This document shows positions 8,438 through 62,909 of a stretch of 64,000 bases of DNA, piece after piece. Source of the stretch: a virus. Under the pieces are notes generated by a model. That model made no database searches, was not told the DNA's origin, and saw only the letters and a program-made list of their open reading frames with translations. The stretch spans positions 64,001-128,000 of IMG/VR virus record IMGVR_UViG_3300045988_161114. One strand, given 5' to 3'. Made by a program: the position numbers and the translations under genes. Numbering within the stretch: position 1 is the first letter of the stretch; each line of letters opens with the position of its first letter.

Positions 8438-8849
8438 AAGAAACTCCGGTTATAGGTGAAAATACTATATTCACCTCTGATTGTTTATTTCTTGTAAATT
8501 GATAGTCTGTACCTACTGCAATTTTGAATAGTATCCTTTGTCCATCTAGTACATAATTTATTTGAAAGTTATCTCCAGAAAAGAATTTGTCTTCTGTAAA
8601 CGAATTCTTTATACTGGTAACTATTTCTTTAGCCAATGAATCGGTTACTGCTCTTCCTATAAATTTATGGAGATTGGCTCCATAAATATTGTATAGGTAC
8701 ATATCGGATGTTCCTGACATTAGTCTATGTCTAGCATTTGTTAGTGCTATCATATTTTGGTTTGACGATGTGTATATATCTCCATTGGATATGATTATAT
8801 CACCATAGTCATCCGTTATTATATCTCTACCTATCTCTTCTATTAGCAT
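8430..8849 (-). CDS. baseplate W / T4 gp25-like protein (139 aa)
   Basis: Size, position directly upstream of the J-like gene, and overall gpW/gp25-like sequence character. Motif-level support is weak. Confidence 0.5.
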   Translation of the reverse strand: MLIEEIGRDIITDDYGDIIISNGDIYTSSNQNMIALTNARHRLMSGTSDMYLYNIYGANLHKFIGRAVTDSLAKEIVTSIKNSFTEDKFFSGDNFQINYVLDGQRILFKIAVGTDYQFTRNKQSEVNIVFSPITGVSYV

Positions 8850-9169
8850 TAGAATAGTCCTGTAACCGTACTTAAAACTACACCATTTATAGCTGATTGT
8901 ATTCCTACATTTTTTGTTGGAACAGTTATTTCAAATGTTGGGACAGGTGTAATCATTGTAGATGGAATGCCTGACACTGCAACAGGGTTAAATTTATAGA
9001 ATCCTCCGAACACTACGGACGTGGGCGGAGATGATACTGACATTGGACCGTTTACAAATACACCATAATCTTTATGTGTAGATATAGACATACTGCCAGA
9101 CGATATAGATGTTACATCTTCTCTTAGGTCTATTAATGTCGTACTGTCTGGAGATGGTCTTATTAGCAT
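8849..9169 (-). CDS. small baseplate / spike-associated protein (106 aa)
   Basis: ATG start with a 1-nt overlap on both neighbours. Ser/Pro/Val-rich. No PAAR motif seen. Confidence 0.45.
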   Translation of the reverse strand: MLIRPSPDSTTLIDLREDVTSISSGSMSISTHKDYGVFVNGPMSVSSPPTSVVFGGFYKFNPVAVSGIPSTMITPVPTFEITVPTKNVGIQSAINGVVLSTVTGLF

Positions 9170-9837
9170 TATGTTTTACCCGTAAAAACAGTAGTTGGCA
9201 TATAACATTCTTTTGTTCTTATTGTTTTATAACTATCAGTTCTTACAACACTTGGATCGACTTTCTGTTCAAAGTCTATTATATCTTCCATATGCGATGG
9301 TGTAGCTATGAACATATTTTGAGATTCTCCATATGTTCCTACAAACCCTTTATGGAATGTTGTGTCATATACTTCATTGGATAGTTTATTGAAATTTTCA
9401 AGTATACCGCGATTCTTTAGTTTGTCTTTTAATCTAGAATCGAATATCTTGTCTTTGTTTGAAAGTCTGTAATCAAACATGGCGCGTCTAGATATAATTC
9501 TAGCATCAGAATTCGCCATTAATATACAGCCAGTTGGAAATCCTTCTTTAGTGAAGAATACTTGAACTCTTGCCCCTATTAAGAACTTGGGGTCTGATAT
9601 TTGTGTAGCATAGGTCATATTTATTGGAATTAGAAGCTCTGCCATAGTGGCAGTATGTTCTGGTGCACCTTTTGGAATTCCAACAAGATATTGTCCACAC
9701 TGAACAGGATTCCCCATCATATCTGATAGGGTTTCCCCAACTAATCTAACAACAACAAATATTTGAGAACCTTGGAGAGATACTGTTTGTATCTCCCCAA
9801 TCTCTGAGTATGCCATTGAAGCTAATGTATTACTCAT
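9169..9837 (-). CDS. baseplate central spike candidate (gpV-like OB-fold, 222 aa)
   Basis: The N-terminal IGEIQTVSLQGSQIFVVVRLVG...GARVQVFFTKEGFPTGCIL resembles the gpV/gp5 OB-fold pattern (G-x-V...V-x-V-x-F...G). Lies directly after the hub-containing giant gene. Confidence 0.45.
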   Translation of the reverse strand: MSNTLASMAYSEIGEIQTVSLQGSQIFVVVRLVGETLSDMMGNPVQCGQYLVGIPKGAPEHTATMAELLIPINMTYATQISDPKFLIGARVQVFFTKEGFPTGCILMANSDARIISRRAMFDYRLSNKDKIFDSRLKDKLKNRGILENFNKLSNEVYDTTFHKGFVGTYGESQNMFIATPSHMEDIIDFEQKVDPSVVRTDSYKTIRTKECYMPTTVFTGKT

Positions 9838-9838
9838 A

Positions 9839-12800
9839 TTAGTCAGTCGCTATCGAATATAGTATTCTAGCCTTTGTTGAGGCTTTTGTGTCTTTTGTAG
9901 CTCCCCACACTTTAGCTAAGCTTTCCCATGTGGTTTTAAGATTTTTAACCTGCAATTCTATAGGACTCAATTCATCATTCCATCCTAATAGTCCTGCTGT
10001 ATATTCTTGTCCATATACAGTCAAAGGCATCTTCATCAGCGCTCTGTGCCTCATGGTTATTCTTTCTTTGTTTGCTTCCCAAACATTTTTAAGAATACCC
10101 CATACTGCTATAACAACTGCTGCTACTACGATAGTTGCTGCTGCTGTTGCTATAAGTCCACCAGTACCAATACTGGCAGCAAGTCCAACAGTTCTGACAC
10201 CATTTATAACAGTTGCTATTGTTCTGCCTGCTGTAGCTACTCTTGCCCAGATTCCGCCTAGTGCGCCTTTCATTGAGGACAGTCCTCTAACTATAAAGCT
10301 AACCTTGCTGAATCTTGCCCAGCCTGATGCTACATGTCCTACTATAGGACCCCATAATGCAGTAGACACATAAGATGCCGCTGTTTTAAGTAACATTGCG
10401 GATGCTGCTGCAGCTGCTAATGATCCTGCTGTTGCCCATCCTACGTCCCAGAATCCTATTTTGGTTGGAGCTATGGATAATTTGCTATACATCTCTCCAG
10501 TAGGTGATGAGTTAACAGATACTAAAGCATATTCTCTTTGACCTTGTGCAAGCATCGAATAGAACATACCCAGCTTTATGTATAGTGATGAATATAAATG
10601 TGTTGCAGGTTCAACAAACATTCCTGGTGTAATTATTGTAATATATCCGTCGTCTTCAGTCAAGATATGTTGGACTTCCCTACACTTCATTACGCCGCTC
10701 ATTTGTCTTAATGAGTCAGAAATGTATGCATAATCACCTGGTGCTACATCTGGATTACCCGATATGATTACACTGCCTGTATACATCTTCTCAAGTTCTT
10801 CAAGGAGATATCCCTGGCCAGTTTTTATTGCCATGCCTTCTGTATTTAATGTACTATCAGTTAAATACGATGATTTAGTAAATGCAGGCATTAATCCGCC
10901 ATTAGATTTCATATCGAACATTTTGTTTTTACCAGTGCCAAAGTCACTTGGCTCTGTACCATATTCGACATTGGCTTGTGTTATCACATCCTGATTCAAT
11001 CTAAGCTGATTACTAATTATATTAGTTGCACTACTAAACATATGGAAGTTTGTAGCAGGAACCCATGCAGTAGAATCTATTGTTTTAGATCCCATTACTG
11101 AGCTTACTACATCAGCCACTTGTCCAGGATTGTCTTTTAGAACCTCAAATTTAGCTGTTGTTTCTCTTTGTCGTTTCTTTATGCCATCTGTGCTATTTAC
11201 CGGAATACCTAAGCTACCTTTTACATTTTTGGCATTTGCGGCTTCTTCTACTTCTTGAGCATGTTGGCTATCTTTATCTAACAGTCCTCCATTGATATTC
11301 TCAAATACCTCTGACGCAACAGAATGTGCAGTTTCATATCCTACCATAAGCTGTTCTTTAATACCTGTAAATATGGTGCATCTTGCACCTATATTTTTTA
11401 TAAGAGCCACTGATGATGGGAATAATCTTCTACCTGTTGTTATCACATCCCATACTGTTTTATTCAATACCGGGAAATTGACAAAGTAGTCGTTAAGAGA
11501 GAATGGGAATAGGTCATTCCATTCTGTAACAAAGAATCTGTCAACCATGTCAACATTCATCAGCCAGAAGTTTTCTAGATGATCTGTCGGACCTTTAAAA
11601 TCATAGAAGAAGAACTCACCTGAAGATGAATTCCATAAAGAATTTGATAACGAGAATCCGCTTTGACCAGATACACCCTGAGCAGCTGTACCAGATGAAT
11701 TTGTATCTACATCTTCACCAAGTATTTTAGGGTTGGCGCCAAAGTGCTGTAGTCTTGCGTTCTTAACTATTCTTGCAACTGCTGCTGATATGTACCTACC
11801 AGATGTATCACTAGCAAAAGTAGTAAATGGCAATACATCGCCGGCGAATATTAATTCGTTTTGTAGTTCTCTTCCATAACCCTCTGCAACTACTCTTACA
11901 ACATCTCCACCATCCGTTTCGGTTATAAGTCCGTTAAATACTACAGGAAGATCATCAATCTTATTGCCGTATCCCATTCTTATTTGAACTTTGTTACCGG
12001 CTTTAAGCCTTATTTGGTCCATTGCTACAACATTGGCGAAATCACTTCCTAAAGATGTTAAATCTAATTTAGTGTTGCCAAGTTTGTCTGCGGTATTGTA
12101 TCCAGTAGTAGGGTCTGTTGATGTATTCAAAGAGTTAAGAACTTCAAAGTATGCAACTGCAACAGGATTATCCTGATTGGCCATTTCTACACGAATATTT
12201 CGTACAGTTGATATTTCATAATATACCGCTTCAACACTTGTATTTATTAATTTAAATAAAGTGTTTTCATTATTGCCGTGTACTAGATATACCTTATATG
12301 TAGGGATAAGTTTTTCTAATCCCCATGTGTAATCTTTTACCATATTAGATATTCTAGCTTTACCTTGTAGATTAGGGTCCCAAGGTGTAGGGTCGGTATT
12401 AAATTCAACTGCTTCATTATTACGTTGTACTGCTACATTATCGTAATAGTTTGACGTATATCCAGCAGCGTCTCTGCTAAAAATACCAACACCGGCATTA
12501 CCTTTTGACACAGCGGCTGAGAGTGACATTGCAACTCTACCGTATTTTTGCCTAGATGTATTATTGCCATCTCTACTATCCTTACCTTGTAATGCTTTCC
12601 ATCCTGCACTATGTCCACCGTTGTGAGACATAGCTACTGCTAACACCTTATCTTGGAACGATAGTTTACTCCAACCAGGTTTAGCTGATAGATAATCTAT
12701 GTTTTTCTGAGTGTATAGCACAAATGCTTGATCTTGTAATTCTCTACTAGATATAAATGCTTTATATCCTCCAGGAATTGTCCAATATGAATCATTGTAT

Positions 12801-51633: not shown

Positions 51634-53583
51634 CTATCTATATGTTTTACTCATATTCGATCTATAATCCTTGAATTTACCATATGCACTACTTCTTGTA
51701 ATAAGTTTTCCAGCTCTACCAGAGCTTGGTTTAACTAATCCAGACCTTCCATAAAGTCTTTTAGCATCTCTGGATAATTCATCAGTTGTTTTTCTTTTCT
51801 CTATAGTAGTTTGACTATTATAACCCTTATACGTTTGTTTTTCAAAAGGCAAAATTGTGTACTCTGAATATCGTCTAGTGTCAAGGATTGACTCGTATTT
51901 CATGTGCAGTCCACATACAGCTATCATAAATGCGTCTAGGTCATGATCGCCAACCTCAGGATTTTTGGCTTCATATATCTCTCTGCCAGAAGCGTTTCTT
52001 GTTTTTACAACATAACCCTTCATTTGCTCAACAATAGGCTCAGCTAGTTTATTGTTTAGTGAGATGAGACCTTTTTCAAGCATCCTTTTTACTGTTTCTA
52101 CCATAAAGTTTTTATAGTATTTTTTACGTATTTCTCCTGTAACTACGTCTACAAGATCCAATGTAGAAGAGAAGTTTACTGGCTGTACATTTGCCAATCT
52201 TAGGTCTGGATGATCTTTTGGCAATTTACCATATGCATCTAATGCAACCAGTTTAAGTTGTTGTACGTTTGCCTCACCAAATCCTTCATCTACGAATATG
52301 AAGTCTGGGATGTATTGCCTATTTAACTCTTTTATTTTTTCTACTGCTGCTACCTGAGTCCATCCCTCTTTCCTAACATTGTCCATTGAGCATACAAAAA
52401 CCTTATCTTCCTTTTTAGAGTATGCAACTATACATATGCGCGTACCAACTTTATCGGCGTTCCAGTCACATCCAAGTATAAGGATATAGTCTTGCCTATT
52501 CATAAGTACATCTGCTATAGGTGCATCAAGTTTTATTTCTTCCGCCCTTGTTATGAATTCAGTTTGGAATACTGCATTGTCAGCAACACCATACTCCGCC
52601 TGAATCTCTTGGATGTAACCCATTACAGAGGTTGAAGACCTTAGGTCTTTATCCATTTCATCGCTGTAGTGAGGAATAACGAATGATGGGAAATGGAACT
52701 CTTTGTACTCTTTAGAATTTGATAACTTAAATAGAATGTTCTCACCCATTGGTGTAGATGTACATGTAAACTCTGTATCCTTTTTATCCATAAGAATTGC
52801 GATTACAGAGTCGAATGCAGCCTTAGTTAAGAAGTCTGCTTCGTCTATTATTAGCCAGTTAGCACCTTGACCACGAATTGAGCCACCATCATTACCAGCA
52901 GTAAATGCTTTTAGTGTAGAACCGTTTTTTAACGTTATCTTTTGATATGGTGATGCAACAGATTGAGATACTAAAGAACTCCATGATCCAATTTCTGGAT
53001 TTATTTTTCTTAATAGTTTTCTAACTGTGTCTGTTATCTCTTTTGCTTGTGATTCAAATGGGGTCACTACAAGGATTTGGTAGTTTTCATTCTTAACTAA
53101 TCTATCAACAATATCTATTGCTAGTCCAAATGTTTTACCGGCGCGTCGTCCGCATCGAATAGTTTTCTTCTTAGCGGAACATACAACCATCATTTCCTGA
53201 TGCCATCTTCTTGCAAACAGTCTTTTATCTGGGTCTTCCTGATCTATATCTATATTGGCGTCTGCCCAAGCATACGGATTCTTTGTTTGCTCTATTTTAC
53301 CAAGCTCTTCGTCTGAGAAGTTAGCTTTTAATTCATCAGGCATTTTACCTATTATAGTTTTAGGACCGCTACATTCTATTGTTATAGCCCCATACTTTTT
53401 GATTTGGTTCATCTGACAGATTCTACACATCTCTTTTGGATCAGTATTATAATTCTTTTTCTTCAGATAATCTTTCCAGTATGTTTCGTAAAGACCTAAT
53501 ATACTGCTAGCAACCTTATCGTCTGGAACATCTATTTCAGGACTATTAATTTTACTTTCATCAACTATTGGTATTACACCCAT
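51634..53583 (-). CDS. terL: terminase large subunit (649 aa)
   Basis: Has Walker A (CGRRAGKTF) and Walker B (WLIIDEADF). C-terminal RNase-H-like nuclease acidic motifs are present (LGCDWNADK, FVDEGFG, GDHDLDAF). The ATG overlaps the upstream stop (TAATG). Confidence 0.9.
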   Translation of the reverse strand: MGVIPIVDESKINSPEIDVPDDKVASSILGLYETYWKDYLKKKNYNTDPKEMCRICQMNQIKKYGAITIECSGPKTIIGKMPDELKANFSDEELGKIEQTKNPYAWADANIDIDQEDPDKRLFARRWHQEMMVVCSAKKKTIRCGRRAGKTFGLAIDIVDRLVKNENYQILVVTPFESQAKEITDTVRKLLRKINPEIGSWSSLVSQSVASPYQKITLKNGSTLKAFTAGNDGGSIRGQGANWLIIDEADFLTKAAFDSVIAILMDKKDTEFTCTSTPMGENILFKLSNSKEYKEFHFPSFVIPHYSDEMDKDLRSSTSVMGYIQEIQAEYGVADNAVFQTEFITRAEEIKLDAPIADVLMNRQDYILILGCDWNADKVGTRICIVAYSKKEDKVFVCSMDNVRKEGWTQVAAVEKIKELNRQYIPDFIFVDEGFGEANVQQLKLVALDAYGKLPKDHPDLRLANVQPVNFSSTLDLVDVVTGEIRKKYYKNFMVETVKRMLEKGLISLNNKLAEPIVEQMKGYVVKTRNASGREIYEAKNPEVGDHDLDAFMIAVCGLHMKYESILDTRRYSEYTILPFEKQTYKGYNSQTTIEKRKTTDELSRDAKRLYGRSGLVKPSSGRAGKLITRSSAYGKFKDYRSNMSKTYR

Positions 53584-54698: not shown

Positions 54699-56361
54699 AG
54701 TGCTTATTACGTTCCTCCCAGTTTGCTTTGCCTACGCCAGCAGGCATAGATGCATAATCCAATGAATGGAATTGTCTTATTGTTGGGTCTGCATACTGTC
54801 TCTGTCTCAATCTTTGCTGATCTTCTCTTATTGCCTTAACCTTTAGGTCGTCATCATATGAATCCATAGATGCATACAGTCCTAGTGCAGCAACACCTAG
54901 TCCTAATACTCCATAACCCTTTTTAAAGTTGTCTGGAAGAAGTTCTCCTAAAACTGGGACATTTTTTATCTTAGTGTCGTATACCTTTTCTGCACCTTTT
55001 ATAAATTCTTTTTTAGGATCTTTCTTATTGGATTCTTCTATAAAAGCTCTTATATCAGATATGATAGTTTTACCAAGCAGGATAGATTCAACTGCGTCAT
55101 CGGCAATATTGGATATATTATCTATTGATGCCATGTCTGCATTTTTGATTATATCTATAAAATCATCTATATTGCCGTTTGACCTTTTCCATGCATCATC
55201 AAGATGTCTCTTTGCTGTAGTGTTGCCATACTTGTCAACCTCCTCCATAACTCGTTTTATGGACTCCTCTTTTGAGTCAGCATGTATATATTTGGGTACG
55301 GATATATTAGATTCTTCATTTGTTATATTATCGACTATGGTTATAACTGTATCACCAGCTCTACGTCTTGCATCAAATCTACCTGTCTCTTTATACTTCT
55401 GAATGTTTGATTTTAGGACTTTCATCCCCATAACTTCTCTAAGGTATGGCTCAGCTTCTCTCATTCTTGTAAATATATCTTTTGTTTCACTAGAGATATT
55501 CCCAGAAATAAGTTCTTCTCTTATAACATTCATGCGCTTAAAGATGGCATACTGCTGTCTTGCATCAGACATTGCTCCGTGTACCTCTTCCTCACCAAGC
55601 ATTAATTTTGAAAGGAAGTCTACATTATGACCAATTTTTGCATAAGACGTCGGAACTTTACCCTGTGCAGCAGCTTTTGTCAAAGTAGCTGCTGTAAAGT
55701 CCATAAGGTCTGCGACATAGAATCTGTTTTGTCCGGCAGGCATAGAAGATATCCTTCTATCTATCTTCTTATATGCTTCAATAACCCTATCGTAAGCCTT
55801 ATCACTAGCCCCTAGTGTCGTAGCATTTTTGGCTTCTTGTAAATGTCTACTTACCTCGGCAGGCCTGTATAATTGGTTAACTCTTTCACCGTTATACATT
55901 TGTGATTCTATCATATTAGCATGTATTGATAACTTATCAGATTCTGGTATTGATGATAGCCATCTTCTTTCGAATTGAGAGTTCTGAATAAGTATCATAC
56001 CTCTCTTGTTGCCGCCATTGCCAAATATATCCTCGTTGATATGTTTATGTATGTCAAATTGTCTGGAATGTCTATTATCAGATTCAAAGTATTTTCTTAC
56101 TGTTTCATTTGTATTGTAGAAATCTTTATCTTTTAAAGCATTCCATTCAGCTTTTTTATCTATTGAATTGTCAGGATCATAAAAGAATTCTTTGGCGATG
56201 CTATTGCCATTATTAGTGCCGTATGCACCAATGGACCAGACTCTTCCTTTACCAACAGTTCTTGTTACGCCATTATATTCTGACGTGATACTTCCGTTTG
56301 GGGTAAGAGATGTAGTCTCTATATCGAAAGATGTTATATATCGCCATAGATCATTGTTCAT
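54688..56361 (-). CDS. DEDDh (DnaQ-like) 3'-5' exonuclease domain protein with a C-terminal hydrophobic anchor (557 aa)
   Basis: Exo I is SFDIETTSL, Exo II is LIQNSQFERRWL and Exo III is VHGAMSDARQQ. A hydrophobic segment GYGVLGLGVAALGLYASM lies near the C-terminus. Confidence 0.7.
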   Translation of the reverse strand: MNNDLWRYITSFDIETTSLTPNGSITSEYNGVTRTVGKGRVWSIGAYGTNNGNSIAKEFFYDPDNSIDKKAEWNALKDKDFYNTNETVRKYFESDNRHSRQFDIHKHINEDIFGNGGNKRGMILIQNSQFERRWLSSIPESDKLSIHANMIESQMYNGERVNQLYRPAEVSRHLQEAKNATTLGASDKAYDRVIEAYKKIDRRISSMPAGQNRFYVADLMDFTAATLTKAAAQGKVPTSYAKIGHNVDFLSKLMLGEEEVHGAMSDARQQYAIFKRMNVIREELISGNISSETKDIFTRMREAEPYLREVMGMKVLKSNIQKYKETGRFDARRRAGDTVITIVDNITNEESNISVPKYIHADSKEESIKRVMEEVDKYGNTTAKRHLDDAWKRSNGNIDDFIDIIKNADMASIDNISNIADDAVESILLGKTIISDIRAFIEESNKKDPKKEFIKGAEKVYDTKIKNVPVLGELLPDNFKKGYGVLGLGVAALGLYASMDSYDDDLKVKAIREDQQRLRQRQYADPTIRQFHSLDYASMPAGVGKANWEERNKHYEY

Positions 56362-56804
56362 TTTATTTTATCCAGTATAGCTAAATATTCTTTATTATTT
56401 TTGAATAAATCATTTTCTGTTACGAATCTGAAGGACATATTTTTGCCTGTAGATTTTATTTTTCTTACCGCGGCCCTTGCTTTTAATTGCACATTTGGAT
56501 CCTTGAGCATTATAGTTGGTTTAACCTCACAAAGTTCCATTCTTCCGTCTTTGTACAATACAAGTACATCTGGAATGTATGTACGCTTCTTTAGGTCTAC
56601 ATCTACATATCGTATCTCTATTGGTTCTGAGAGATATTTAATTACATTAGGATCGGATTCTAGCTGTTCAAAGAAGGCATATTCATATGCTGAGCGGTAT
56701 TTCATATAAGATCTGTTCTTTACAGATTTATACATACCGCTTTTGTACATATCATTTTTATTGAAATATATTCCGTTATTTTTCTTGCTCTTTTTTCTTG
56801 GCAT
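56358..56804 (-). CDS. PD-(D/E)xK nuclease, TnsA N-terminal-domain-like (148 aa)
   Basis: SAYEYAFFEQLESDPNV...RTYIPDVLVLYKDGRMELCEVKP shows E...PD...E-V-K spacing as in TnsA-type endonucleases. ATG start with a 29-nt overlap on the upstream gene. Confidence 0.6.
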   Translation of the reverse strand: MPRKKSKKNNGIYFNKNDMYKSGMYKSVKNRSYMKYRSAYEYAFFEQLESDPNVIKYLSEPIEIRYVDVDLKKRTYIPDVLVLYKDGRMELCEVKPTIMLKDPNVQLKARAAVRKIKSTGKNMSFRFVTENDLFKNNKEYLAILDKIK

Positions 56805-58164
56805 TTAAGAGCTCCTGAATTGCTGGATCTACATATCCATTGCCGCTTGATGCTCCGACACTTTTTAATATCATTTCAATCTTAGATGACAGTGAAGCCA
56901 TTTCTGATGTCATACCACTTTGAATAGTGTCAACTGCTACTTTTGCTGCATCTTTTCTAGTTGCCATCAGCGTTTCTAATATTTTAAGGCGATTCTTTTT
57001 AATGCGTTCTTTTATATTAAAATACTTAGATACGTCTTCTTTTATTATTTGTCCACCATTTGCATCAAAACCATAGAAATCTTCTTGAGACATATTTTGA
57101 TCTTGAAGAGCTAACATAAGTGTTGCTCTCCTTTCATACAGATCAAGTTCAGACAATTCAGATATCAGATGCATTTCAGTTATTCTACTAGGATCAGCAT
57201 TGAATTCGTCTAGATATCCTTCTATTGATTGTCTTAGATATGTTTGTTCATATATACATTGTGATCCTATTGGGGCTTTATTAATCTTATTAAGTTCACA
57301 GTTGTGAACTAAGATACCATTTGCAAAGAAATTAGAATTCAGATTCACAGTTATGTCGTATACATCTTCTATTCCTGAATATTCGATACTCACTATTTCA
57401 GATTCTAGAAGATCTCCATATTGATTTACATTTTCAATATTTGTTTCTAATTCCTCATTGTAAAATAAATCAGTTACTAAAACCTTATGTCCTACTTCTA
57501 AACCATCATCAATAGAGATATATGAATATACATCTCCGTTAAAAGCATAGAATAAATGATTTGTTGTAACTTTTAAAGAATGACCGTGTTCAGTAACAAC
57601 AGTGTAGACTTCTTGTCTACCTGTTGGTATAACTGATCCTATAACTATATCACTACGGATTTCTTGTGTTTTAGTATCAAAGCTATATATTTTATCTTTG
57701 TCTACTATATCGGTTATCTTTTTAGCTATTCCATATCTCATAGATACTAGTGTATCACCAGTTACACATGTTTCAGCAAATGGACATTTAGAACCTCTAC
57801 ATATCATTGGTGCTGCTGCTGTTACACCTCCAGAAGTCATTTTAGCAATACTTTTATTAAGATTCTTTGCTTCATCTTCTGTTAATGCAATATGTTTATA
57901 TTGATCTTCATCAATATCAAATGCTCTTAAGTAATTTGTTTTGGTTAGTTTATCACCACTAACAGCTATTGCTTGTGATGATAACAAAATTGGAATTGTT
58001 TTACTAGTATCACTACCAGAGGATATGGATTTCATTTTATCTTCTAAAACAGATTCTACAACTGTTTTACTTTTATTAGAATTTGTCAGTTGTTCTGACA
58101 AATTGAATACAGTATCTAGTTCCGATTTAGGAATTCCTTTACCATAATTGAATTCATTATTCAT
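56776..58164 (-). CDS. putative DNA-packaging (small-terminase-like) protein with a Cys4 cluster, interrupted by a mini-intein (462 aa precursor, 306 aa spliced)
   Basis: First gene of the leftward operon and upstream of terL. The spliced extein would read ...MICRGSKCPFAET|CELNKINKAPIGSQCIYEQ..., a 4-Cys cluster. The small-terminase assignment rests on position and is unverified. Confidence 0.4.
   Translation of the reverse strand: MNNEFNYGKGIPKSELDTVFNLSEQLTNSNKSKTVVESVLEDKMKSISSGSDTSKTIPILLSSQAIAVSGDKLTKTNYLRAFDIDEDQYKHIALTEDEAKNLNKSIAKMTSGGVTAAAPMICRGSKCPFAETCVTGDTLVSMRYGIAKKITDIVDKDKIYSFDTKTQEIRSDIVIGSVIPTGRQEVYTVVTEHGHSLKVTTNHLFYAFNGDVYSYISIDDGLEVGHKVLVTDLFYNEELETNIENVNQYGDLLESEIVSIEYSGIEDVYDITVNLNSNFFANGILVHNCELNKINKAPIGSQCIYEQTYLRQSIEGYLDEFNADPSRITEMHLISELSELDLYERRATLMLALQDQNMSQEDFYGFDANGGQIIKEDVSKYFNIKERIKKNRLKILETLMATRKDAAKVAVDTIQSGMTSEMASLSSKIEMILKSVGASSGNGYVDPAIQELLNAKKKEQEK
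57301..57768 (-). mobile_element. mini-intein (156 aa, no homing-endonuclease domain)
   Basis: Block A is CVTGDTLVSM (C133, TGT at 57766-57768). Block B is LKVTTNHLFY (TxxH). Blocks F/G are DITVNLNSNFFANGILVHN, followed by the +1 Cys (HN at 57301-57306, TGT at 57298-57300). All boundaries were verified on the DNA. Confidence 0.85.
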
Positions 58165-58383
58165 ATTTTTTCCTATTGTTAAATATCTTATAATCTTTTA
58201 GAAATGTTATTAAAATAACTAATAATAAATAAAAAGCTGTAAATGATATAAGTAAGTCTCGTTATTTAATAAGACATTCCATTTAAGCTTATAATCTTTT
58301 TAATATAGTATACAATATTTATATTTTTTAAACAATATATTTATTTATATTTTTTAATATGATCCCATATTTTCTTGTAGTGT

Positions 58384-58392
58384 ATTATAACA
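58384..58392 (-). promoter_or_regulatory. extended -10 promoter element (TGtTATAAT) for the leftward packaging/structural operon
   Basis: The minus strand reads TGTTATAAT at 58392-58384. It lies ~220 nt upstream of the ATG at 58164, and an extremely AT-rich leader follows. Confidence 0.45.
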
Positions 58393-58415
58393 CTGCGTTC
58401 TTGTGGAACGCTGTG
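58391..58415. promoter_or_regulatory. 10-bp stem-loop (one mismatch) abutting the extended -10 element
   Basis: CACTGCGTTC-ttgtg-GAACGCTGTG. On the plus strand it is followed by TTTAAAAATTT. Possibly the 3' hairpin of the upstream RNA candidate, or an operator. Confidence 0.4.
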
Positions 58416-59111
58416 TTTAAAAATTTAAAAATGTTTAGACATCTGTTGAAGAATTGTTTAAAATAGATGTATACATTTTTAATAGATACAATTAGGCCTA
58501 GCAAAGCAAGGCTTTCATCTAAAAAGATATAGCTGTATCTGCCATGTTATTCCCAGTTCCACTTTCGTAACTTCCTTTGCGATTATCAAGCAGTGATCCA
58601 AATGATCATCAGAAGTAAGCTTTTACACTTTGTCGTGTCTTAACTAACAGGATATTGATTACTCCAAGTGTCGTTATTTCGCAACACTCTGTTAAGTTCT
58701 GGTTCATTATATTTATAGTCGAGCAACTTTTATAAGTTGCTAGGTTATATCTCATTGCACTATCTATATAACCCTAAAGTTGTCTGTCTGACCATACGGC
58801 TCGATTTCGAGGATAATCCGTTATTTGCAACAGGTCATTATTTTTATACTGCCCAACTTTCATAACTCTTTATGTATTACTTTTTGTAAGGGAGCTTACA
58901 CAGGGAGAATTACGCTACTTCAACAAACAGTTTTTCGATACCTCCCTAGCTAGGCTTGCCCACATCTTGGGAGATCATTATACTTTCGCTACCGGCCTCT
59001 ACCGATTATTCTATGAGTTACTTGGTATAAGGTCAACTCTCTTTTAGTTCCGATGCCGTAGTTTATCCCGACTAGATACTAACCTCAACGAGTTAACAGA
59101 GCGAATTATAC
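58392..59111 (-). ncRNA. candidate large structured non-coding RNA (about 0.65-0.7 kb); strand tentative
   Basis: No ORF of 60 aa or more in any frame across 58165-59297. The core is ~38% G+C by hand count, against 13-18% in the flanking spacers. It holds many perfect hairpins and nested helices, plus GAAA-closed stems and G-U pairs that favour the minus strand. A candidate promoter lies at 59147-59118. Confidence 0.45.
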
Positions 59112-59117
59112 TCTCAT

Positions 59118-59147
59118 TTTATACAGTTGTGTGTTAAGGAAGTGTAA
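59118..59147 (-). promoter_or_regulatory. candidate sigma70-type promoter for the RNA candidate (TTACAC-18 nt-TATAAA)
   Basis: On the minus strand the -35 TTACAC is at 59147-59142 and the -10 TATAAA is at 59123-59118. It matches the consensus only moderately. Confidence 0.3.
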
Positions 59148-59153
59148 AAAATA

Positions 59154-59173
59154 ATGTAAAAATATTTTTACAT
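59154..59173. repeat. 20-bp perfect palindrome ATGTAAAAATATTTTTACAT with an extra upstream TGTAAAAA copy
   Basis: Its self-complementarity was verified base by base. TGTAAAAA also occurs at 59143-59150. The palindrome sits between the two divergent promoter candidates. Confidence 0.8.
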
Positions 59174-59213
59174 ATACTAAAAATAAGTGGTTGTTTTTAA
59201 ATATAAAAAAGTT

Positions 59214-59242
59214 TTGACTTTTTATAAAAACATAGGTATAAT
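59214..59242 (+). promoter_or_regulatory. near-consensus sigma70 promoter (TTGACT-17 nt-TATAAT)
   Basis: The -35 is at 59214-59219 and the -10 at 59237-59242, with an exact 17-nt spacer. It lies 56 nt upstream of the ATG at 59298. Confidence 0.8.
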
Positions 59243-59297
59243 TCAAATCTTAGTCACCACAAAGAAGATTATTATTTTTTATTTAAGGATTTAAATT

Positions 59298-60125
59298 ATG
59301 CGTTTTGGCAATACTTACGAAGACAGAATTTTCTTTCACCAACCAGAAAGACTGACATTTTACAACCTACAAAATACTTGTGCACTGTGCCGTACCGGCC
59401 GCACTATGGTAACAACCCATAAAAAATATGGTAACATTGTTGACATCTGGGGCTCAAACGATTACTGTACAGGATACCTGTCAAATGCTTTTGTAAACAT
59501 GCAAAAGAAAGACTATAACGAAAAAGTATATAAACTAGAAATATACCCTGTAGTGTACATGGTTTCAGAAGAGGAAAGAAAATCAATGGCAGGTATTGAA
59601 GAACTTGAAAACAAATATATTCTTAATTCTGCATTGATGGTTTATAGATCTGGAAAACATCCTCAATACAATGTATCGGTAGCTAAAACAGATTATAATC
59701 ATGTTAAGGTAAAAATGAATTACAACGTAATTCTAGAGCAATCACTAGATGGTGTTGTATTACCGCTACGAGAACTGATAGCAAGGATGACAGTATCAGC
59801 GATCAACTACAATAGAGCGATTAAGTTTATTCCTCATCAAGATATGATTATTGAACTGTGTATACCACAATCTGTTATGGATGAGATCAAAATGGAGCAA
59901 GACAGTGAACAAACAGACTTCGATAGTGAAGCGTTACTGATAAAACTTCTTGCGAATGTTCTTGGTTCTGATTTTGGAAGCTTCTCAAATAAATTCAATA
60001 GAGATAAATTCAAGATCAAAATAATCGATGACTCAACCGAAGTAAAAGCCGAAAATAATTTACCGGCAGTGTACAGAGAATTGATTGATGTATATCGCGG
60101 ATCATTCGTTTCAAATCCTCTATAA
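59298..60125 (+). CDS. hypothetical protein (275 aa), a lone rightward gene with its own promoter and terminator
   Basis: ATG with a GGA ribosome-binding site. The only plus-strand gene within ~63 kb of leftward genes. No family motif recognised. Confidence 0.75.
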   Translation: MRFGNTYEDRIFFHQPERLTFYNLQNTCALCRTGRTMVTTHKKYGNIVDIWGSNDYCTGYLSNAFVNMQKKDYNEKVYKLEIYPVVYMVSEEERKSMAGIEELENKYILNSALMVYRSGKHPQYNVSVAKTDYNHVKVKMNYNVILEQSLDGVVLPLRELIARMTVSAINYNRAIKFIPHQDMIIELCIPQSVMDEIKMEQDSEQTDFDSEALLIKLLANVLGSDFGSFSNKFNRDKFKIKIIDDSTEVKAENNLPAVYRELIDVYRGSFVSNPL

Positions 60126-62366: not shown

Positions 62367-62909
62367 TCAAATGACTCCGTTACGTTTTAAGAAGCTCTCA
62401 AATTCCGGACCTCTGTCAAAGTCCTCTTTAGGACTTGGACTCCAGCTATTTGCAGCATTTCTTGTTTGGAAATCTTTTCTGAACAAACCTTCAAATGCTT
62501 TAGCATCTCCAGGTCCAGCCCCATCAAATGCACTAGCAAAAGCTTTGTCCATGTGTTTACTTCCTCCATTCATCCCTGAACCAGCATCAAATCCGGCCAT
62601 AGCCTCTGAAACAGCTTTCTTAGCGCCAGTTGCACTGGCAGCTAAATCACTAGCAAGGTTACGGAATCCAGTTGATTTGTGAGCAGCGTAAGCAATGCCC
62701 GCGCCGGCAATCGCACCAAAGGTGCCACCACCAACTGTACCTCCAAATGCTGTAGTGTTGTCGGACAAGATGCCATTTCCTAAGCCATAGGCTGCGCCAG
62801 CAGCGGCACCAACACCGACCCCACCTGTCCATTGTGGAGCAATTTCGGATTTACCAAGGAAGTTTTGTACTCTAGCATACATACTGAAACGTTTATTGGC
62901 GATAGCCAT
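62367..62909 (-). CDS. glycine-zipper-rich protein (180 aa)
   Basis: ATG with a strong AAGGAG Shine-Dalgarno. Contains GGVGVGAAAGAAYGLGNG and GGTVGGGTFGAIAGAGIAYAA. The DNA is locally G+C-rich. Confidence 0.6.
   Translation of the reverse strand: MAIANKRFSMYARVQNFLGKSEIAPQWTGGVGVGAAAGAAYGLGNGILSDNTTAFGGTVGGGTFGAIAGAGIAYAAHKSTGFRNLASDLAASATGAKKAVSEAMAGFDAGSGMNGGSKHMDKAFASAFDGAGPGDAKAFEGLFRKDFQTRNAANSWSPSPKEDFDRGPEFESFLKRNGVI

Follow-up and report, generated by a model that had tools for sequence, protein, structure and literature searches.

The stretch examined here, positions 64,001 to 128,000 of the IMG/VR virus record IMGVR_UViG_3300045988_161114 (64,000 nt, hereafter the window, whose own numbering is used throughout), belongs to a contig of 184,711 bp from a human-gut metagenome. 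Between a plus-strand gene for a protein of 275 amino acids (aa) and a long run of minus-strand genes that leads to the large terminase lies the interval 58165-59297, and its minus strand carries the gene of a HOLDH RNA (Rfam RF02997). A first-pass annotation, made from the letters alone, had marked this interval as free of open reading frames (ORFs), enriched in G+C and dense in hairpins, and had proposed a large structured phage RNA of about 0.65 kb, with the GOLLD and ROOL RNAs as the comparison class. The longest ORF in any frame of the interval is indeed at most 48 aa. The G+C contrast is also as described: the flanks at 58200-58499 and 59100-59299 have 17-21%, the core at 58400-59099 has 33-43% and the neighbouring coding sequence has ~26-38%.

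A divergent HOLDH RNA gene

In a cmscan search run in E-value mode, the HOLDH covariance model aligned over its whole length (model positions 1-391 of 391) with the minus strand at 59097..58723, with 312.3 bits and E=3e-85, and it matched this strand only. The score falls 7 bits short of the Rfam gathering cut-off for RF02997 (319.4 bits), which is an annotation threshold and no biological property, and a default Rfam scan of the window is silent for this reason. A sister locus from the same clade (L003) scores 323.2 bits, above the cut-off, and the remaining lineages 372-409 bits. The minus strand at 59097..58723 is thus a HOLDH RNA gene, with a full-length model match and a conserved fold, and the window is a divergent member of an already catalogued family, not of GOLLD or ROOL. 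That the element is real follows from homology, in the form of the covariance-model match and of covariation, and not from folding energy. The by-eye reading had found a genuine RNA, already catalogued but lost at the default Rfam threshold for want of 7 bits.

To gather relatives we scanned collections of viruses, metagenomes and genomes for exact patterns and then ran nhmmer. This gave about 45 related loci, mostly on phage contigs of 100-190 kb, which form six clusters corresponding to about four deep lineages (labelled A, the clade of the window, B, B2, C and D). Clade A is ~55% identical to the other lineages and is the most divergent clade found (312-323 against 372-409 bits). A fourth scan of viral sequences with a looser pattern yielded extra lineage-C copies and no new lineage, and the loose 14-base pattern TGNTGAAGNAGCGTAA returned mostly chance loci. 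The sole match in 185,579 cellular genomes, found by exact-pattern scan in Paenibacillus, was rejected as chance; the nhmmer profile does not recognise it. We also dropped a reading of genome termini from the ends of the fetched loci, one contig being cut differently in two collections (L026 and L162).

The comparison class proposed at first did not hold, since neither GOLLD nor ROOL matched, whether at the gathering threshold over the 64 kb or at E<=10 over 58100-59350. Under the same two settings there was no Rfam match to group I or group II introns, RNase P or transfer-messenger RNA (tmRNA), no family other than HOLDH scored in 58100-59350 at E<=10, and ARAGORN found neither tmRNA nor transfer RNA (tRNA) in the window. 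A blastn search of GenBank phages with the interval gave no match. These results bear on the idea of a decayed mobile ribozyme (a group I or II intron), of another RNA class such as RNase P or tmRNA, or of a hidden small protein gene. Mobile elements do lie close by, namely a mini-intein and a TnsA-like endonuclease, but the lack of any such Rfam match even at E<=10 and the empty ARAGORN output speak against a ribozyme or another RNA class, and a small protein is disfavoured by the longest sense ORF, which has 48 aa in the window and is cut to 32 aa in a sister sequence, and by the absence of any sense ORF of at least 25 aa in B2. We find this group of explanations hardly credible.

Among the large RNAs of bacteria or phages, HOLDH belongs to the few without a known function, and Rfam types it as a small RNA (sRNA) gene. 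It was described by Weinberg et al. in 2017, in the supplement and not in the main text (PMC5737381). Besides this discovery paper, the literature that we found comprises a study of kink turns (K-turns; PMC8191799) and a table entry in a methods paper, according to which the RF02997 seed holds 10 sequences with a mean of 401 nt and 6 of 95 pairs covarying (PMC12510878). The features of the locus are collected in Table 1.

Table 1. Positions of the HOLDH element and of neighbouring features in the window
Feature	Position	Strand	Basis and remarks
HOLDH core (Rfam RF02997 part)	58723..59097	-	RNA positions 1-375; cmscan, covariation
K-turn bulged strand	59083..59090	-	C8, bulge G9-U10-U11, G12-A13-G14-G15; partner AAGA-G at 59039-59043
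Candidate pseudoknot within core	59052..59056 (GCAUC) with 58962-58966 (GAUGU)	-	covariation
LR1 5' strand, GCCUAGC	58949..58955	-	RNA positions 143-149; palindrome CCTAGCTAGG
Lineage-variable 3' region	58514..58722	-	~210 nt, hairpin-rich, non-coding
Conserved 3' motif ..GCUAGGCCUAAUUGUAUCUAU..	58472..58513	-	hidden Markov model; contains the LR1 3' strand GCUAGGC (58496-58502) and palindrome TAGGCCTA
Hairpin, possible 3' end or weak terminator	58391..58415	-	11-bp stem, one mismatch, no minus-strand U-run
Putative -10 box TATAAT	59105..59110	-	aligns column for column with the TATAAT of relatives
Divergent orphan gene, 275 aa	59298..60125	+	always adjoins HOLDH; promoter TTGACT-17-TATAAT at 59214-59242
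First gene downstream of HOLDH, 462 aa, mini-intein	56776..58164	-	Pfam Intein_splicing 5e-15
TnsA-like endonuclease gene	56358-56804		follows the 462-aa gene; Pfam Tn7_TnsA-like_N 1e-12
Large terminase	51634-53583	-	Pfam Terminase_6N 1e-8; PHROG terminase large subunit 3e-31

Fold of the core

Mapped on the window, the Rfam structure has 82 of 85 pairs canonical. For covariation, the pairs of this structure were counted across 31 distinct sequences, aligned with MAFFT and without fitting to the structure. In this alignment 82% of the cells were paired, against 71% in shuffles and 39-43% in slid controls, and the pairs changed on both sides numbered 33, against 31.0 and 5-11, respectively. The covariation score was 0.318 (shuffles 0.133, with none of 500 reaching the observed value; slid controls at most 0.095). 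A search without bias for stacked, always-pairable columns led to the same helices as those of Rfam. Compensatory changes in relatives, for which the first-pass annotation had called as a check, are thus present and the fold is kept.

Most of the secondary structure that had been picked out by eye stood up to this comparison. Five of the six listed helices are complementary, the sixth (58996-59004 with 59024-59032) pairing at only 4 of 9 positions, and those at 58722-58741, 58743-58773, 58789-58837 and 58937-58976 are Rfam HOLDH helices that covary in relatives. The helix TGTAAG/CTTACA (58885-58900) can form, but it competes with a conserved Rfam helix and the other lineages do not have it. 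The hairpin UUAC-GAAA-GUGG is present as written, and the GAAA at 58982-58989, which had been taken for a second tetraloop, belongs to an internal loop of the Rfam fold. The preference for the minus strand was well placed, given that the model matches this strand only and that, read on the plus strand, many of the conserved G-U pairs would turn into C-A mismatches. A hairpin density beyond chance was not confirmed: against dinucleotide shuffles the folding energy had a z-score of -0.62 over the whole RNA, of -0.21 over its 3' part and of -0.10 on the plus strand, so that in this respect the RNA is indistinguishable from the shuffles.

At the level of sequence the window keeps the HOLDH K-turn signature in the internal loop of the first helix, with C8:G59, the 3-nt bulge GUU and the tandem pairs G12.A58 and A13.G57. 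The HOLDH loop GUU-GAU-GAAG / UGGA-AAC folds as a K-turn according to Förster resonance energy transfer (FRET) and L7Ae binding (Huang et al., PMC8191799); the construct used in that study is a lineage B2 sequence, and in the window the 3b:3n pair is G:A instead of A:G. A candidate pseudoknot within the core is 100% paired in the 31 sequences, and its central pair occurs as AU in 15, GC in 11 and UA in 5 of them on the alignment that was not fitted to it; two of its five pairs compete with an invariant Rfam helix.

Lineage D (L007, L005, L012 and others) has deleted a hairpin whose 20-nt loop bears a second conserved CUCCCU, an anti-Shine-Dalgarno-like sequence; the equivalent in the window is at ~58870-58900. 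Since the loop is deleted in this lineage it appears to be dispensable.

Probable extension beyond the Rfam model

The nhmmer alignments between lineages pass the Rfam end at 58723 and reach ~58470-58425 in the window. The ten bases just past the model end, GACUAUAAAU, are conserved, and conservation as a whole runs from ~59110 to ~58472, far past the 375 nt covered by Rfam, which agrees with the size of ~0.65 kb given at first. Between these ten bases and a conserved 3' motif lies a lineage-variable region (58514..58722), which is contiguous with the core with no terminator in between and through which no conserved ORF, sense or antisense, could be followed. Window-clade substitutions in it fall, by eye, in predicted loops or G-U pairs. 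By sequence it could not be aligned to the other lineages, and the equivalent region in B, B2 and D holds hairpins with compensatory changes (RNAalifold). Long-range pairs proposed by RNAalifold for the 3' part of B, B2 and D were dropped, the helix region known from Rfam having been mispaired as well.

The 3' motif has the consensus ..UAGGCCUAAYUGUAUCUAU.. across all lineages. A hidden Markov model (HMM) built from the non-window lineages has one match in the 64 kb, at 58513..58472 on the minus (RNA) strand with E=0.002, and this motif is the only part of the 3' region that such a model finds. We then searched ten representatives for all perfect 7-nt Watson-Crick complements between core and 3' region. 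A single core position recurred in all lineages, and its partner was always inside the conserved 3' motif; we refer to this tail-to-core pairing as LR1. The core strand and the 3' strand read GCCUAGC and GCUAGGC in lineage A (the window), GCCUAAC and GUUAGGC in B, B2 and D (with up to 9 bp in B and D), and GCCUGGC and GCCAGGC in C. When a mini-alignment was anchored on the invariant AGGCC, each of the seven core pairs was 100% paired over nine distinct variants, two of these pairs had changed on both sides, and the covariation was 0.154 against 0.102 in shuffles, 14 of 500 of which reach the observed value. On the unfitted full-length alignment LR1 is 93% paired, with AU in 19 and GC in 12 sequences at one pair, and five lineage-C rows are one column out of register in this MAFFT alignment. 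LR1 competes with a 4-bp Rfam hairpin, which is itself always pairable but shows no compensatory change, and a concerted change of a DNA inverted repeat would mimic the LR1 pattern. The independent lineages number only three to four, and it is for this reason that we take the support for LR1, judged from these comparisons, to be real but modest.

The two self-complementary tracts to which the first-pass annotation gave a possible role in RNA dimerisation are present as written, and they coincide with the strands of LR1. Palindromy is lost in B2 (UUAGGCCCAA) and in C (CCAGGCCCUU), and the two tracts are better read as the two strands of one covarying long-range pairing. A further contact, LR2, is tentative: it would join an internal loop, GAUUGUAA, with a 3' hairpin loop, UUACAAUU. 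LR2 is compensated only between B and B2 (GAUUGCAA/UUGCAAUU), reaches no more than 5 bp in lineage C and has two alternative strands in the window, GAUAAUC (58587..58581) and GUAAUC (58662..58657).

Covariation of this kind fits LR1 pairing in cis and in trans equally. In the phage phi29, the packaging RNA (pRNA), of ~120-174 nt, has complementary segments that pair between molecules, and HOLDH resembles it as a phage-encoded structured RNA with covarying complementary segments; pRNA differs in being much shorter, and among Rfam families only HOLDH scored in the interval. On this analogy the strands of LR1 would pair between molecules, and HOLDH, with at least 0.62 kb in the class of ROOL and GOLLD, would be joined head to tail in closed multimers, comparable to the rings of phi29 pRNA or the cages of ROOL and GOLLD, which could serve these ~180-kb phages in packaging or head assembly. 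The HOLDH gene adjoins the terminase module, and ROOL, GOLLD and OLE are homo-oligomers with conserved intermolecular contacts (10.1101/2024.12.08.627333). Pairing within one molecule is, however, the simpler reading, closeness to packaging genes is no feature of known packaging RNAs, and the interval gave no score to any family but HOLDH, so that we consider such multimers improbable.

The comparison between lineages suggests that the RNA likely extends past the Rfam model, via the ~210 nt of variable sequence, to the conserved 3' motif. Its full length would then probably be ~627 nt if it ended with the motif, and ~707 nt if it ran on to the hairpin at 58391. For the HOLDH family, both this extension, with its docking helix, and the pseudoknot within the core may be novel features.

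Gene neighbourhood and proposed transcription and mode of action

Gene order around HOLDH is fixed in all lineages: a divergent orphan gene of 275-306 aa is followed by HOLDH and then by a co-oriented block consisting of a mini-intein protein (441-462 aa), a TnsA-like endonuclease, proteins of 557-577 and 371-385 aa, and the large terminase. The window shares this order with the loci that score above the Rfam cut-off. Over ~54.6 kb, between 58164 and 3511, all long ORFs lie on the minus strand, including those of 2013, 1664 and 1273 aa. The mini-intein (C-[LV]TGD ... VHN-C) of the 462-aa protein is present in all lineages (orthologues in L006, L016 and L112), and its extein has no Pfam or PDB relative. 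The large terminase is nearest to those of Acinetobacter phage ME3 (40% identity), Moorella phage MTATph1 and Bacillus phage 0305phi8-36, and its ATPase scores as a DEAD-type helicase. We take the name HOLDH to stand for hypothetical ORF, LD-carboxypeptidase and helicase.

With a minus-strand block on either side, the 275-aa gene stands alone on the plus strand. Its product has no Pfam or PHROG match, only 4 close relatives and 11 distant ones, the latter from 1.84 billion representative proteins, and an AlphaFold predicted local distance difference test (pLDDT) score of 40, with which its structure is not modellable; the family has the invariant motifs QPER, EELENKY, EQSLDG and NYNR. The protein is a candidate HOLDH partner because the two are constantly paired. 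A perfect 20-bp palindrome, ATGTAAAAATATTTTTACAT, lies at 59154-59173, between the HOLDH promoter and that of the 275-aa gene. It is nearly conserved in the window clade (one arm is 1 base off in L002 and L004) and missing from the other lineages, and it could be an operator. Farther along, G+C peaks at 44-52% at 62400-62900, against ~33% in the rest of the window; the peak covers an ORF of 180 aa (62367-62909) that has no Pfam or PHROG match.

In the relatives, the sequence ahead of HOLDH holds predicted sigma-70 promoters, consensus or near-consensus and matching at 11 of 12 positions, that end 7 nt before model position 1, namely TTGACT-17-TATAAT in L006 and, by eye, TTGACA-17-TATAAT in B-D. 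The box TATAAT of the window at 59110..59105 likewise ends 7 nt before model position 1, as in L006. The promoter TTACAC-18-TATAAA (59147..59118) proposed at first is possible, but the box that aligns with the relatives is this TATAAT, 8 nt downstream of TATAAA (59123..59118). A simple promoter scan does not list it because its -35 element is weak, being either CACACA at 17 nt or TTAACA (59137..59132) at 21 nt.

At the other end, lineages B, B2, C and D share a conserved canonical terminator on the RNA strand, GGAGGTAGC-loop-GCTACCTCC followed by a T-run, 275-700 nt past the 3' motif and ~310 nt before the next gene. The 3' hairpin that had been placed at 58391-58415 in the window is present as written, and the scan finds it terminator-like on the plus strand only. 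Upstream of the intein-protein gene every lineage carries a TATACTA(A/T)A box with a weak -35 (58307-58312 on the minus strand of the window; also in L006, L016, L112 and L012), which suggests that the gene block has a promoter of its own, perhaps a late one.

In B2 and C the ORF-free stretch after HOLDH measures 700-1100 nt. Short GC hairpins and inverted CTATTG / CAATAGRRAAA repeats fill it up to the conserved terminator GGAGGTAGC..GCTACCTCC at its end; the sequences concerned are at 8744-9438 (-) in L016, 6114-6854 (-) in L112 and 11445-11719 (+) in L006. The repeats may be protein-binding sites or further RNA. The window clade is without both the spacer repeats and the conserved terminator, and CAATAGRRAAA has 2 matches in the 64 kb (0.66 expected), a number for which we rejected it as a general phage promoter or ribosome-binding-site motif.

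An AT-rich intergenic stretch beside the terminase module could also be an element of DNA, such as a pac or cos site, the end of the genome, an origin of replication or a recombination site with inverted repeats that vary together; GCCTAGC...GCTAGGC is a DNA inverted repeat as well, and CAATAGRRAAA/CTATTG hairpins fill the downstream spacer in B2 and C. These repeats are, however, missing from the window at the counts just given, the covariance model matches one strand only, 33 pairs have changed on both sides and many are G-U, and the promoter is placed exactly with respect to model position 1. The locus is moreover internal, at 106-113 kb of the 184.7-kb contig and at no contig end, which also speaks against the genome terminus that the first-pass annotation had kept in view. 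A DNA-level element is for us very improbable.

More serious is the possibility that HOLDH acts in cis, as the leader of the ~55-kb packaging and structural block, either by processive antitermination, in which it would render RNA polymerase resistant to the terminator behind it, as HK022 put and EAR do, or by gating translation or stability. It shares with these a promoter-proximal structured RNA, a terminator and a long co-oriented operon: in every lineage HOLDH is co-oriented with and directly upstream of the same gene block, four lineages have a terminator downstream of the RNA and ahead of the first gene, the window has no canonical one there on the minus strand, and promoter-like sites just before the first gene are weak (9 of 12 positions). 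Known antiterminator RNAs measure ~70-130 nt, and HOLDH, with more than 600 nt, is 5-10 times larger and has no sequence relation to them. The spacer ahead of the first gene is of variable length (300-1100 nt), with nothing conserved in it but the terminator and the TATACTA box, this box looks like a separate promoter downstream of the terminator, and Rfam classes the family as an sRNA gene. We therefore think a leader unlikely, though it deserves attention, and favour a stand-alone RNA acting in trans.

The explanation that we regard as probable, with some reserve, is thus that of a HOLDH gene in a human-gut phage of ~185 kb which makes, from its own promoter, a tail-closed RNA of ~627-707 nt that acts in trans. 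Such a gene would form its own transcription unit, read by the host RNA polymerase from a sigma-70-type promoter, and transcription would likely start ~7 nt past TATAAT (59110..59105), as the alignment indicates. The RNA would likely continue beyond 58723, through the variable region, to the 3' motif at 58513..58472, seven bases of which (58502..58496) would likely pair back onto the core at 58955..58949. The outcome would be a closed multi-domain RNA of ~627 or ~707 nt that would act in trans in its folded form, either scaffolding partners, protein or RNA, or working much like a ribozyme. On this view HOLDH would be neither a site in DNA nor a protein gene nor the leader of an mRNA.

Several observations weigh against this explanation. 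Besides the score below the gathering cut-off, the folding energy, the failure of the variable region to align between lineages and the reservations on LR1 given above, the -35 element of the window is poor, and the scan found no canonical minus-strand terminator between HOLDH and the next gene in the window, where read-through into the operon is possible. The ends of the RNA, its promoter and the unity of the transcript are also all ones that we infer from comparison of sequences.

With the HOLDH of Rfam the window has in common the helices, the K-turn loop of the first helix, the neighbourhood of hypothetical ORFs and terminase, and an orthologous position. It differs in a conserved unit ~250 nt longer than the 391-position model, in the 3' motif that would pair with the core and in the candidate internal pseudoknot. 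Like ROOL and GOLLD, HOLDH is phage-borne, non-coding and multi-domain; it differs in that neither of their models matches the window, in that no tRNAs adjoin it (none in the 64 kb), and in that the single scan of cellular genomes, by exact pattern, did not reveal it. ROOL has a mean size of 581 nt (PMC5737381), which the extended HOLDH, with ~627-707 nt, would reach.

If an RNA of ~627-707 nt with a docking tail is confirmed, the 391-position Rfam model and the constructs derived from it miss part of the fold, and by its size HOLDH would rank with ROOL and OLE. Structure probing or cryo-electron microscopy would then best use a construct from 59097 to ~58472. The strict synteny of HOLDH, between an orphan gene and the packaging block of one family of human-gut phages of ~180 kb, shows where its partners and phenotypes are to be sought.

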